Position numbers and translations under genes: made by a program. Positions 3,950 through 13,425 of a stretch of DNA of 64,000 nucleotides are shown piece by piece. This DNA comes from Candidatus Rokuibacteriota bacterium (GTDB lineage: Bacteria; Methylomirabilota; Methylomirabilia; Rokubacteriales; CSP1-6). The stretch covers positions 608-64,607 of the forward strand of contig QHSO01000011.1 of assembly GCA_003220475.1 (NCBI GenBank), given 5' to 3'. Under the pieces are notes generated by a model. That model was not told where the DNA came from. It made no database searches and saw nothing but the letters and a program-made list of their open reading frames with translations. How positions within the stretch are numbered: the first letter of the stretch is position 1; each line of letters starts with the position of its first letter.

Positions 3950-4588
3950 TCAGGAGCCCTGCAGCGCCTCGTGGACGCGGCCGACCATCTTGGCGCCGGG
4001 GTTCACGAGTGTCTTGTCGCCCTCGTCCTTCCACTTCGAGGGACAGACCTCGTTGCCGCCCTTTTTCGCCATGTAGATGTTGGCCTTGAACTTCCGCAGC
4101 TGCTCCTCGATGTTGCGGCCGAGGTTGTAGAAGTTCATCTCGCTGCCCATCAGCTTACCCTCGGGATCGATGAGAAAGCTGCCGCGCAGGTCGAGGCCGT
4201 TGTCCTCGTTGTAGACGCCGAACATGCGCGAGAGCTTGCCGGTCGGATCGGCGGCCATCGTGTACTTCACGTTGGCCAGCTCCTTTTCACTCCGCTGCCA
4301 GGCCAGGTGCGTGAACTTGGTGTCCGTGCTGCACGTCACGATGTCGCACCCCATCCGCTGGAACCGCTCGTGCTGCTCTGCCAGAGCAGCGAACTCCGTC
4401 GCTCAGACGAACGTGAAGTCCGCGGGGTAGAAGAACAGCAGCGTCCAGCGCTTGTTCGCGATCTGATCGCGCAGGCGGAACGTGCCGAAGTCGCCCTTGG
4501 ACGGCTCGAACGTCTCGACGTCGAACTCGGGCACCTTCTGCCCGAGCTTGACCGGCGGCGGTGTCGTCGCCGTCATCGTTTCGGCCAT
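3950..4588 (-). CDS. ahpC: Peroxiredoxin (AhpC/Prx1) with selenocysteine at the peroxidatic site, 212 aa
   Basis: FFYPADFTFV-TGA(4403-4405)-ATEFAAL continues in frame into ORF 3950..4354; resolving EVCP motif retained; RBS before ATG 4588; hairpin downstream of TGA. Confidence 0.9.
4372..4390 (-). promoter_or_regulatory. Putative bacterial SECIS hairpin of the peroxiredoxin
   Basis: GCTGCTCT-GGC-AGAGCAGC perfect 8-bp stem starting 13 nt after the in-frame TGA; G-rich apical loop. Confidence 0.7.
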
Positions 4589-5079
4589 GTCGCTCTCCCT
4601 TCGTGCTGAGGTGAACTGCCGACCCGACGCCGGCCGCGGCACGCGGCGCAGCGTCCGAAGATTTCCACCGAGTGACCCGCCGCCTCGAAGCCGTGGCGCG
4701 CGGCCGCCGCCGCCGCCGGCTGCGCCGCCGCCTCCAGCCGCGGCTCGGTGACGTCCGTCACGGTGCCGCACGTGGTGCAGACCAGATGGTGATGCGGCTC
4801 GAGGTTGGCGTCCCAGCGGCCGCGCGCGCCCAGCCGCGAGACCGGCCGGACGGCGCCGATGCGCGCCAGCGTGTCGAGCGTCTTGTAGACCGTGGCCAGC
4901 GACAGCGTCGGCATCTCGCGACGGACCGCGGCGTGCAGCTGTTCGGCGCTCGGGTGGCGCTCGGTCGCCGCCAGCCGGCGGAAGATCGCGAGTCGCTGCG
5001 GGGTCACCGCGATGCCGGCGGCGCGGCAGCGCGCCAGGAACGGATCGAGAGGGTCGCGGTCGAGCGGGCGGTGGCGCAC
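4573..5079 (-). CDS. Fur-family peroxide-responsive regulator (PerR-like)
   Basis: TPQRLAI, HPSAE, SLATVYKTL, RWDAN, HHHLVCTTCG and CxxC; directly upstream of the peroxiredoxin. Confidence 0.88.
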   Translation of the reverse strand: MRHRPLDRDPLDPFLARCRAAGIAVTPQRLAIFRRLAATERHPSAEQLHAAVRREMPTLSLATVYKTLDTLARIGAVRPVSRLGARGRWDANLEPHHHLVCTTCGTVTDVTEPRLEAAAQPAAAAAARHGFEAAGHSVEIFGRCAACRGRRRVGSSPQHEGRATWPKR

Positions 5080-11030: not shown

Positions 11031-12083
11031 ATGATGAGACGGATCGCAGTCCTCGGTGCGGGCGCCATCGGCTCGGTGGTCGGCGGGATGCTCACCAAGG
11101 CGGGTCACGACGTGACCCTCGTCGATCAATGGCCCGAGCACGTGCAGGCGATGAAGACCATCGGCCTGCGACTCTCGGGCACGTGCGGCGAGCACGTCGT
11201 GCCGGTGCGCGCGCTGCATCTGCACGAGCTGCAGTCCGTGGACGCGACGTTCGACGCCGTGTTCCTCGCCGTCAAGAGCTATGACACCGACTGGGCCGCG
11301 CAGCTGGCCGCGCAGTATCTCGAGCCGCGCGACGGCGTCGTCGTCGATTTCCAGAATGGGATCAACGACGAGCGGGTGGCCGCGATCGTCGGCCGCGAGC
11401 GCACGCTCGGCTGCGTCATCGCGATCAGCGCCGGGATATACGAGGCCGGTCACGCGATCCGTACCGACACGGGAGTGGTCGGCTTCTACGTCGGCGAGCT
11501 GGACGGCCGCGACACGCCGCGTGCGCAAGAGTTGGCGCGTGTGCTCGGCGCCGTGGCGCCGACGAAGGTGACCACGAACCTCTGGGGGCAGCGCTGGTCC
11601 AAGCTCGCCGTCAACTGCATGGGCAACGCGCTCGCCGGGCTCTCCGGACTCGGATCCGCCGAGCTGCGGCTCGAGCCGGGACCGCGGCGCGTGTCGATCC
11701 AGCTCGGCGCCGAGGTCGTCCGCGTCGGCCGCGCGCACGGCCACACGATCGAGCCGCTCATCGGCGGCATCGACGCGCAGCGGATCGTGGACGCGGCCGA
11801 AGGCCGTGGCCTCGCCGAGGTTGAGGCCGACCTCGCCGCGGAGGCCAAGCGCCGCACCGGCGGGCGGCCGTCCCTGCTGCAAGACGTCATCAAGCGACGC
11901 CGCACCGAGGTCGATTTCCTGAACGGCCACGTCTCGGCCGAAGGCCGGACGAAGGCCGTGCCCACGCCGTTCAACGACGCGATCGTCGCCGCCGTGCACG
12001 CGCATCCGGTCGGACAGCTCACGCCCAGTCCCAAGCACCTCGAGCCGCTCATCGCCATGCTGCCACCGGCGCAGCGTCCGTGA
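11031..12083 (+). CDS. Ketopantoate reductase family protein
   Basis: GAGAIG Rossmann motif, AVKSYD, QNG, WSKL.VN, SLLQD...RRTEVDFLNG. Confidence 0.9.
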   Translation: MMRRIAVLGAGAIGSVVGGMLTKAGHDVTLVDQWPEHVQAMKTIGLRLSGTCGEHVVPVRALHLHELQSVDATFDAVFLAVKSYDTDWAAQLAAQYLEPRDGVVVDFQNGINDERVAAIVGRERTLGCVIAISAGIYEAGHAIRTDTGVVGFYVGELDGRDTPRAQELARVLGAVAPTKVTTNLWGQRWSKLAVNCMGNALAGLSGLGSAELRLEPGPRRVSIQLGAEVVRVGRAHGHTIEPLIGGIDAQRIVDAAEGRGLAEVEADLAAEAKRRTGGRPSLLQDVIKRRRTEVDFLNGHVSAEGRTKAVPTPFNDAIVAAVHAHPVGQLTPSPKHLEPLIAMLPPAQRP

Positions 12084-12328
12084 GCGCGACGCAGACGCGC
12101 GTGAACGTCGAAATCCGTCGCTGACTCTTCTGAGGCGATCTTCGCCGGGAGGCCGTGCGCCTCCGCGAGGAGCTGGCCCGCGAGGGCATCACCGCGCCGA
12201 TCCGCCTCGGCGGACTCGGTGAGCTGACGGTGAAGGTCGACGGTCGCGCGGTCTTTTCCTACAAGCAGGCCGGCCGTGTGCCGCAGGCGGGGGAGGTCGC
12301 GCGACTGGTGAAGGAGACGAGCCGATGA
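12080..12328 (+). CDS. SelW/Rdx-like selenoprotein with UxxU motif (82 aa), absent from the ORF track
   Basis: GTG overlaps the upstream stop (GTGA) and its stop overlaps the downstream ATG (ATGA); reads VNVEIRR-TGA-LF-TGA-GDLRREAVRLREEL...GELTVKVDGRAVFSYKQAGRVP...EV, the Rdx fold pattern. Confidence 0.82.
12142..12168 (+). promoter_or_regulatory. Putative SECIS hairpin of the UxxU protein
   Basis: TCGC-cg-GGAGGC-CGTGC-GCCTCC-GCGA; loop 20 nt after the second TGA and 29 nt after the first. Confidence 0.55.
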
Positions 12329-13182
12329 CGACGCTGACGCTGGGCGGCGTGAGCCTCACGCGCGTGATCGAGATCGGGCGTTCGTCGTTTCCGACGACGT
12401 CGATGCTGCCGGAGTCGACGCCAGAGGCGGTCGCCCGACATCACGGATGGCTCAAGCCTCATTTCTGGGACGAGGCGACGGACGATCTCGGCTCGTGCAT
12501 CGGCACCTGGATCGTGCGCACGCCCGAACACCTGGTGCTGATCGACACGGGCGTGGGCAACGACAAGCCGCGCGAGAGCAATCCGATCTGGCATCGTCGC
12601 GCCGGCACCTTCCTCGACGATCTCGCCGCCGCCGGCGTCAGGCCCGAGCAGGTGGACTACGTCGTGATCACGCACATGCATGTGGATCATGTCGGCTGGA
12701 ACACGCGGCTGGTGAATGGCGTGTGGGTCCCGACCTTCCCGAACGCGCGCTATGTGTTCGCCGGCGAGGAGTGGGATTTCTGGAAGCACGAGAGCGAGCG
12801 CGGCGCCGACGAGTACGGGTGTATCGACGACAGCGTGCTGCCGATCGTCGCCGCCGGCCAGGCCCAGCTGGTCGACGCGACGCATCGCATCGACGACTGG
12901 CTGAAATTCGAGCCGTCGGCCGGCCACACGCCCGGCCACGCATCGGTACGACTGACCACGAGCGCGGGCGACGCCGTGTTTTCCGGCGACCTCATGCATC
13001 GGGTGGTGCAGGTGGCCGAGCCGCAGTGGTCGAGCCGCTTCTGCTACGACGGCAAGCAGGCCGCGGTCACGCGCCGCGAGTTCGTCGAGCGCCACGCCGA
13101 CACCGGCACGCTCATCCTGGCCGCACACTTCCCGCGGCCGGGGCTGATCGTGCGCGAACGAGAGGGTCTCCGGTTTAGGTAA
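12325..13182 (+). CDS. MBL-fold metallo-hydrolase
   Basis: LIDTG, THMHVDHVGWN, GHTPGH, SGDLMH, AHF. Confidence 0.93.
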   Translation: MTTLTLGGVSLTRVIEIGRSSFPTTSMLPESTPEAVARHHGWLKPHFWDEATDDLGSCIGTWIVRTPEHLVLIDTGVGNDKPRESNPIWHRRAGTFLDDLAAAGVRPEQVDYVVITHMHVDHVGWNTRLVNGVWVPTFPNARYVFAGEEWDFWKHESERGADEYGCIDDSVLPIVAAGQAQLVDATHRIDDWLKFEPSAGHTPGHASVRLTTSAGDAVFSGDLMHRVVQVAEPQWSSRFCYDGKQAAVTRREFVERHADTGTLILAAHFPRPGLIVREREGLRFR

Positions 13183-13192
13183 GGTGGTCGAG

Positions 13193-13234
13193 GAGCGTGG
13201 GGGGTTGGGGGGCCATGTCGGGGCCCCCCATTTT
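13193..13234 (+). repeat. G-rich REP-like palindrome, copy 1
   Basis: GAGCGTGGGGGGTTGGGGGGCC-ATGTC-GGGGCCCCCCA; similar to 47921 and 34955. Confidence 0.75.
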
Positions 13235-13425
13235 CAACAGACCAGCTCGACGCTCGTGACGCGGATCTTGCCCTCGGCGGCGAGCATCAGCAGCACCGAC
13301 GTGGCTCCGGCGGGAGAGAGGTTGAGCCGGCGCGCCAGGTCACCCGTCGAGATCGGTCCCTCACGCAAGCACGTCAGGACCTGATCGTCGAGCTCGCTCC
13401 ACCACCCGTTCTCCGCCGTCGTCAT
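13234..13425 (-). CDS. Small winged-helix/HTH protein (63 aa)
   Basis: GGAGG RBS; VLTCLREGPISTGDLARRLNLS...LLMLAAEGKI. Confidence 0.7.
   Translation of the reverse strand: MTTAENGWWSELDDQVLTCLREGPISTGDLARRLNLSPAGATSVLLMLAAEGKIRVTSVELVC

Follow-up and report, generated by a model that had tools for sequence, protein, structure and literature searches.

Bacterial SELENOW-like (SelW-like) proteins are entered with a CxxU motif and a single selenocysteine (Sec, U) in the tables of two reviews (PMC13188914, PMC9312934), and the table of the Global Ocean Sampling (GOS) survey gives SelW-like proteins as CxxU as well (PMC2398784). A UxxU motif, in which Sec occupies both positions, is assigned in the two review tables to peroxiredoxin (Prx)-like, metal-binding and FmdB-type proteins (PMC13188914, PMC9312934). 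A UXXU motif has also been described in Group 4 [NiFeSe] hydrogenases, for which one Sec insertion sequence (SECIS) was proposed to act on both UGA codons and a link to tRNA-ReC was drawn (PMC13582414). In eukaryotes, SELENOW of the UxxU type has been reported from amphioxus and Ostreococcus lucimarinus (PMC7539508). Our searches of open-access text turned up no report of a bacterial UxxU SelW-like protein. The present analysis concerns a candidate gene for such a protein, located at positions 12101 to 12328 on the + strand of a 64,000-nucleotide stretch (the window) of contig QHSO01000011.1 from a Candidatus Rokuibacteriota bacterium. A first-pass annotation of the window had placed here a hidden SelW/Rdx-like gene with a double-Sec UxxU motif, which it called rare; the rarity was overstated, since published UxxU proteins include members of several bacterial families (PMC13188914) as well as eukaryotic SELENOW (PMC7539508).

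The gene resembles the bacterial SelW-like family (PF10262/TIGR02174) in its predicted fold, the position of its motif, the Sec codon at the second motif position and a SECIS-like hairpin downstream within the open reading frame (ORF). It differs in that the first motif residue would also be Sec, that the subfamily is found in one order and that its scores lie at or under the family cut-offs. The eukaryotic UxxU SELENOW belongs to the same family and shows the corresponding replacement of the first Cys of the motif by Sec (PMC7539508). However, the SECIS of eukaryotic SELENOW lies in the 3' untranslated region and can serve many UGAs, whereas the one described here lies within the ORF, and its distance to each of the two UGAs is fixed. 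Bacterial UxxU proteins (Prx-like 2/SelL-like, NF041115, FmdB-family and Group 4 [NiFeSe] hydrogenases) have in common with it two UGAs two codons apart and one SECIS-like hairpin, but they have other folds and roles and none of them is Rdx. Because the predicted fold is Rdx and not Prx-like, the product is not considered a member of the SelL family. Read from its sequence, it is a new (UxxU) bacterial variant of a known selenoprotein family, for which UxxU had previously been in print for eukaryotes. Taken as a whole, we consider it probable that the locus holds a UxxU Rdx gene with two Sec residues and one SECIS, which descends from a CxxU ancestor and lies in a three-gene unit.

The reading frame and its fold

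The + frame from 12080 to the TGA stop at 12326-12328 is open once TGA is read through, and contains in-frame TGAs at 12122-12124 and 12131-12133. Both TGAs, and with them the UxxU motif, had been noticed before; they are confirmed in this frame and recur in relatives. Starting from the GTG at 12080 the frame reads VSATQTRVNVEIRR-U-LF-U-GDLRREAV...KETSR (82 residues), while from the GTG at 12101 it reads M-NVEIRR-U-LF-U-GDLRREAVRL... and comprises 75 codons followed by the TGA stop.

Relatives were sought with a profile in 183 genomes of the order, a match of over 86 bits being taken as strong and stops being read through in six-frame searches. These searches returned the same frame in relatives, with 44 strong orthologue matches in 43 of the 183 genomes. 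Across 251 genomes of the phylum, 43 have the subfamily at E <= 1e-14, and it was found in this order only. A single-protein search had led to one locus only, in a metagenome-assembled genome of Candidatus Rokuibacteriota, the genome profile search being far more sensitive. The first motif position is TGA in 10 of the 44 orthologues (UxxU) and TGC or TGT in the other 34 (CxxU). The UxxU genomes comprise six of the window's own genus (G000, which is the genome of the window, G003, G004, G006, G007 and G008), one of a second genus (G106) and three of another family (G045, G047 and G049). A metagenome scan with an IUPAC pattern built from the alignment matched 55 contigs, 54 of which carry family members; that all 54 are UxxU follows from the construction of the pattern. 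The frame is broken in only three of these 54 copies. Ten genomes and 54 contigs share this frame together with its two TGAs and the hairpin, a recurrence well beyond chance.

The pattern of variation is also that of a coding sequence. The entropies at codon positions 1, 2 and 3 are 0.57, 0.32 and 0.83 over codons 2-7 and 0.63, 0.49 and 1.19 over codons 12-18, so that third positions are the most variable both 5' of the TGAs and between them, which is a coding-type constraint. In the 44 orthologues the conserved start lies seven codons 5' of the first U or C, which in the window is the GTG at 12101; among 66 distinct 5' sequences this site is ATG in 44, GTG in 14, TTG in six and another codon in two. 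The GTG at 12080 is an in-frame alternative start in this strain only. In two members of the same genus, G006 and G007, the GTG overlapping the stop of the preceding gene is in a different frame from the SelW-like gene, and the 12080 start is therefore probably a strain-specific coincidence. Of the earlier description of a gap exactly filled by one frame coupled at both ends, the GTGA and ATGA overlaps are present, but the start and the coupling at both ends are not supported, the conserved start being 12101 and not 12080. In public protein collections all 76 relatives found are of a short form, which is 56-69 residues long and spans 72-84% of the query, and are labelled 'hypothetical protein' wherever they are named; in the window this short form begins at the GTG at 12155 and has 57 residues. 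As judged from these alignments, 12101-12328 is a real, conserved and unannotated gene that has been missed or cut short by gene callers.

The AlphaFold2 model of the product, built from a 43-row alignment, has a pLDDT of 94.2 and a pTM of 0.82. It consists of a strand (E3-7), a helix (H12-27), three strands (E34-36, E42-46 and E49-53) and a final helix (H65-74) in a thioredoxin-like order, with U8-L-F-U11 situated in the loop that joins strand 1 to helix 1. Foldseek returned 20 PDB matches at E <= 0.001, of which the top ones (2P0G, 3DEX, 2OBK, 2OJL, 2OKA and 2FA8; TM 0.77-0.83, root-mean-square deviation about 1.8-2.1 A) are bacterial SelW-related proteins, followed by MIEN1 and mouse SelW. 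The orthologue profile matches 2LJK (MIEN1), 2FA8, 3DEX and 2OKA, and aligns the CTQC of 2FA8 to the UxxU motif in such a way that the second Cys corresponds to the second UGA. The tail of Rdx proteins follows the motif G-x-F/L-E/D-V...(D/N)G...V(F/W)SK...G..P. A tail of this type is present in the product, where GGLGELTVKVDGRAVFSYKQAGRVP aligns to a 25-residue stretch of 2LJK. Fold, structural matches and profile alignment bear out the SelW/Rdx assignment of the first-pass annotation, and the product is, on the predicted model, an Rdx/SelW-like protein of a divergent subfamily.

The same genome also encodes a classical SelW-like paralogue (CGEU...GIFEV...FP, contig C297), and such paralogues are common across the order, where they score 30-52 bits against the orthologue profile. 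For a maximum-likelihood tree of 72 distinct proteins, the column of the first Cys/Sec was masked; the tree rests on few columns and on midpoint rooting only. On this tree UxxU forms three separate clades of 26, 8 and 4 rows, and a minimum of three state changes is forced by well-supported branches. Since the distant paralogues and most orthologues are CxxU, three gains are the simplest reading, by which CxxU would be ancestral and the first Cys codon would have become UGA about three times within one order.

The two UGA codons and the conserved hairpin

The genes for Sec incorporation, whose absence would have spoken against the proposal, are all present in the genome. The tRNA-Sec gene (selC, 69.7 bits) is on contig C124, where its neighbours score 588.9 bits (selA) and 369 bits (selB), and selD (335.5 bits; contig C102:8784-9734) has an in-frame TGA of its own. 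Homologues with Cys had been expected at both motif positions, and they were found. The first UGA (UGA1, 12122-12124, residue 8) aligns with Cys (TGC or TGT) in 34 of the 44 orthologues. The second (UGA2, 12131-12133, residue 11) occupies the canonical Sec position of CxxU SelW-like proteins, is TGA in all 44 and corresponds to Cys in 2FA8. The case for Sec at the canonical position is very strong, and that for Sec at the added position is good but indirect. Both UGAs would be decoded as Sec by the SelB and tRNA-Sec of the host. The resulting U-L-F-U would be the redox motif of a 75-residue thioredoxin-fold protein, which may act through a selenylsulfide or a diselenide.

A SECIS-like hairpin, named h2 here, lies on the + strand at 12148-12164 (GGAGGC-CGUGC-GCCUCC). 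Its arms (GGAGGC at 12148-12153 and GCCTCC at 12159-12164) form a 6-bp stem around the loop CGUGC (12154-12158) with a free energy of -9.9 kcal/mol, and the loop is 20 nucleotides (nt) from UGA2 and 29 nt from UGA1. In a 2026 review, the consensus bacterial SECIS is described as having a stem of 4-16 bp, a loop of 3-9 nt with a G in the first two loop positions, a spacing of 16-37 nt and a minimum free energy at or below -7.5 (PMC13188914). For both UGAs h2 falls within these limits. The 44 orthologues align over 75 nt without gaps, and RNAalifold predicts one hairpin. All five core pairs of h2 are standard pairs in each of the 44 sequences, with G-U in five cells, and one pair switches from G-C to C-G in three genomes of the other family, which is a compensatory change. 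The six-pair version is paired in 90% of cells, as against 42-55% for controls with shifted partners, and the loop G at 12155 is invariant in all 44. The hairpin pointed out in the first-pass annotation is thus conserved and SECIS-like, and the folding and covariation analysis suggested there agrees with it. In a simple hairpin search, 12 other Sec UGAs of the genome had their hairpins at 16-29 nt (median 20), so the spacing of UGA2 is typical for the genome. One hairpin in the ORF, h2, most likely directs both readings, at 20 nt and at 29 nt. No Rfam family was matched at the gathering score over the whole window, a result that says little because Rfam does not cover bacterial SECIS elements of this type.

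An extended lower stem (12139-12145 with 12165-12171), which RNAfold prefers in this strain, was considered as a further part of the SECIS and was rejected, being unconserved in one UxxU clade (the g39-like clade). A different lower stem was noticed in the large sister genus, where many CxxU forms (for example G079, G025 and G073) have the rare Arg codons AGA or AGG (usage 0.8% and 2.2%) two codons after the Sec codon. The AGAC so formed can pair with a GUCU that includes the U of UGA and so place the UGA in a lower stem; this pairing is lost in the UxxU forms (alignment columns 10-13 and 25-28).

Alternative readings

Directly after UGA2 lies a proximal hairpin of 13 nt (h1, 12134-12146 on the + strand; GGCGA-UCU-UCGCC), which had been proposed earlier to alternate with h2. 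It is possible, though in our judgement unlikely, that h1 is needed for the first UGA. By folding at the mRNA entry of the ribosome it might bring the SECIS nearer to UGA1, at about 16 nt instead of 29; alternatively, it might be a recoding stimulator 9 nt after UGA1. Three codons on, the ribosome would melt h1 and the same SECIS would then serve UGA2. Several features speak for such a role. Counting hairpins with at least four outer pairs, 62 of the 64 UxxU sequences have h1 and all 34 CxxU sequences lack it. It occurs in all three UxxU clades, and in the third of them G047 and L125 use CCCG-N5-CGGG, of equal length and position. Over this stretch, the UxxU gene of G106 differs from that of its CxxU genus-mate G097 by TGC>TGA, GTG>CTG and the three synonymous changes GGG>GGC, CTG>CTT and CGT>CGC, which jointly create h1. 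A fifth pair requires CTT (2.7% of Leu codons) or CAT (22% of His codons), the three CxxU genes with Gly at the site all use GGG (14% usage), and the 29 nt of UGA1 lie at the upper end for the genome. However, the peptide G-D-[LH]-R-R together with the codon usage of the genome gives four outer pairs by chance with P about 0.5, G045 and G049 are UxxU without h1, and the loops of h1 have no conserved G. Its sequence is identical in two of the UxxU clades (g1-like and g39-like), which may therefore have exchanged a short 5' recombination tract. Equilibrium folding over 60 nt gives h1 probabilities from 0 to 1 among UxxU sequences, and 0.02 in the window, where a longer stem competes; such pairing probabilities were not used as support.

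A control is provided by NF041115, an unrelated family of UxxU metal-binding proteins in the same order. These small HMA-like genes are common there (loci L181-L199; GMT-U-G-x-U-P); 15 are UxxU and one is UxxC, every one of them with a single conserved hairpin (GGCCCUG-GNN-AGGGCU) 16-17 nt after the second UGA, and the NF041115 match in the window's own genome is of the Cys type only. In all 15 UxxU genes the geometry is that of the SelW-like gene, with one hairpin whose distance is 22-23 nt to UGA2 and 31-32 nt to UGA1. A hairpin like h1 is not seen in them; a weak proximal one (-2.5 to -4.0 kcal/mol) is found in only three of the 15 although their UGA1 is at 31-32 nt, and the UxxC member retains the first UGA only, at 32 nt. 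Since this unrelated family manages without it, h1 is probably not required. The alternating-hairpin proposal is thus sustained in that h1 is real and linked to UxxU, while the control argues against any need for it in decoding. Codon bias, the UxxU genes without h1 and the NF041115 control together favour a single SECIS for both UGAs. That h1 is a distance-adjusting or recoding-stimulating element, evolved at each change from Cys to UGA so that one SECIS can serve two UGAs, is a doubtful proposition. If true, bacteria would possess, in h1, a natural mRNA device with two states for the insertion of two Sec residues.

The decoding of UGA1 itself may be read in another way. It could be read as Cys, by a SelB-dependent tRNA of the ReC type or by a near-cognate tRNA-Cys, or as Trp by tRNA-Trp, and the protein would then be CxxU or WxxU. 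A UGA followed by C is a weak termination context in E. coli. In 63 of 64 UxxU sequences UGA1 is followed by C, all but one of the UxxU sequences reading U-L-x-U with that C; the NF041115 control has G there, so the context is not general. Genes like tRNA-ReC are enriched in genomes with UXXU hydrogenases, for which the same possibility has been raised (PMC13582414), and a tRNA could have been missed in the present assembly, which is 92% complete and has only 39 tRNA calls by aragorn. However, a search of this genome and 10 relatives (nine of them UxxU carriers), all incomplete assemblies, gave no further tRNA-Sec-like gene with UCA or GCA as its anticodon, and the extra Rfam tRNA-Sec matches in three relatives are tRNA-Ser(CGA). 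Moreover, a TGC>TGA change still read as Cys would bring a cost only, yet it was fixed about three times and is kept in 64 sequences. We therefore regard such a reading of UGA1 as quite improbable. Less credible still, and indeed very improbable, is that the UxxU copies are decaying through a nonsense change at codon 8 or that the true product is the 57-residue ORF from the GTG at 12155. The short form of all 76 public proteins fits this, as does the lack of an evident Shine-Dalgarno-like site, on reading the sequence, 5' of 12101 or 12080. Yet 97 sequences preserve the 18 upstream codons, and do so with a coding pattern. The start position and the hairpin are retained, as is the second TGA, and only three of the 54 metagenome copies have a broken frame. 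The 57-residue product would also be without the first strand of the predicted fold and without its redox motif, and its GTG sits in the loop of the SECIS hairpin.

Separately, aragorn calls four long tRNA-like genes of 94-97 nt in this genome, with anticodons cag, gcg, atc and cac (C145:3063-3158, C274:3548-3644, C69:13605-13698 and C313:1080-1174). They have no match to the tRNA-Sec model; they could be spurious calls in DNA rich in G+C, or else unusual tRNAs.

Some observations weigh against the account of a double-Sec Rdx gene with one SECIS. Scored as a single sequence, the product falls just under or well under the curated cut-offs of Pfam and NCBIfam. In the Pfam Rdx search that had been suggested earlier, it narrowly misses the cut-off of PF10262 (22.5 bits against 22.6, over residues 10-78 of the 82-residue reading); it reaches 20.7 bits against 34.2 for TIGR02174 and 35.1 bits (E 1.2e-8) against 88 for NF041051. 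One public short relative does carry a precomputed PF10262 label. The 29 nt between UGA1 and the hairpin are the top of the range for the genome. Because h2 overlies the conserved codons E-A-V/G-R-L, much of its conservation could be protein constraint, and a two-sided change occurs at one pair only, in one clade. Single-sequence folding of 12116-12185 gives z = 0.12 against shuffled sequences, a value that is uninformative at this G+C. In the window's own genus, six of 12 genomes have no SelW-like gene at the search threshold. Metatranscriptomes (four soil contig sets, searched over 11031-13182) give patchy cover, with one 296-nt contig at 12171-12467 and none over the UGAs; this contig could be DNA carry-over, and transcription of the 5' part of the gene is neither supported nor opposed by these data.

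Neighbouring genes and other selenoproteins of the order

Upstream of the SelW-like gene, and first of the apparent unit, is a PanE/ApbA-family (2-dehydropantoate 2-reductase-like) gene (11031-12083, + strand; ApbA E 2.9e-30, ApbA_C E 1.5e-23), which reaches 173.5 bits with TIGR00745 against a cut-off of 141.35. Downstream lies a lactonase-like gene for an MBL-fold hydrolase (12325-13182, + strand; Pfam Lactamase_B E 1.9e-25), for which the NCBIfam models of AidB/YtnP-type lactonases remain under their cut-offs. A Shine-Dalgarno-like site, AAGGAG (12311-12316, + strand), is situated 8 nt 5' of the ATG of the MBL gene. The stop of the PanE-like gene overlaps the GTG at 12080 as GTGA, and the stop of the SelW-like gene overlaps the start of the MBL gene as ATGA (12325-12328). 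The three genes keep their order in the own-genus clade and in the second genus, whether the SelW-like gene is CxxU or UxxU, and the PanE-like and MBL genes flank it in the g1-like and g39-like clades. Of the 44 genome loci, 16 have one or both of these neighbours. Neither was found at the remaining 28, among them every one of the 18 loci in the large CxxU genus and the three in the other family. The remaining neighbours in the window are unrelated genes, most of them on the opposite strand; among them, directly after the MBL gene and convergent with it, is a winged-helix ORF of 63 residues (13234-13425, - strand) with DprA_WH, HTH_24 and MarR-like matches. From this arrangement, the PanE-like reductase, the SelW-like protein and the MBL-fold hydrolase look like a three-gene unit with the selenoprotein in the middle. 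The Rdx protein may be a redox partner for the reductase-lactonase pair. Selenium-dependent translational coupling to the MBL gene, raised in the first-pass annotation, is possible but unsupported.

The window also contains a selenoprotein gene of a known type. A peroxiredoxin (AhpC/TSA) gene at 3950-4588 on the - strand has a TGA at the peroxidatic position (4403-4405; ...FFYPADFTFV-U-ATEF...) and a SECIS-like hairpin with an 8-bp stem and a GGC loop 20 nt after the UGA, and its product is a TxxU Prx. An ORF for a Fur-family-like regulator (4573-5079, - strand) lies just upstream of it. In the genome as a whole, 12 of 22 AhpC/TSA-type matches have one in-frame TGA, the matches being distributed over contigs C319, C51, C114, C329, C65, C64, C229, C144, C59, C42 and others. 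A search of the same genome for further UxxU genes with NF041115, TIGR02605 and PF00578 gave no match with two TGAs. To judge by these gene counts, the selenoproteome of this soil lineage is unusually large.

The SelW-like gene brings to light a systematic annotation error, since every one of the public relatives found is a shortened 'hypothetical protein'. How one bacterial SECIS within an ORF can act on two UGAs three codons apart is an open question in the 2026 paper on UXXU hydrogenases (PMC13582414). For this question the family would offer a compact natural test set of 75 codons and one conserved SECIS, with about three independent switches from CxxU to UxxU represented by close sister pairs and with a candidate helper hairpin in some lineages only. 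To the bacterial SelW-like family, given as CxxU only in the two review tables, a double-Sec UxxU form would be added.

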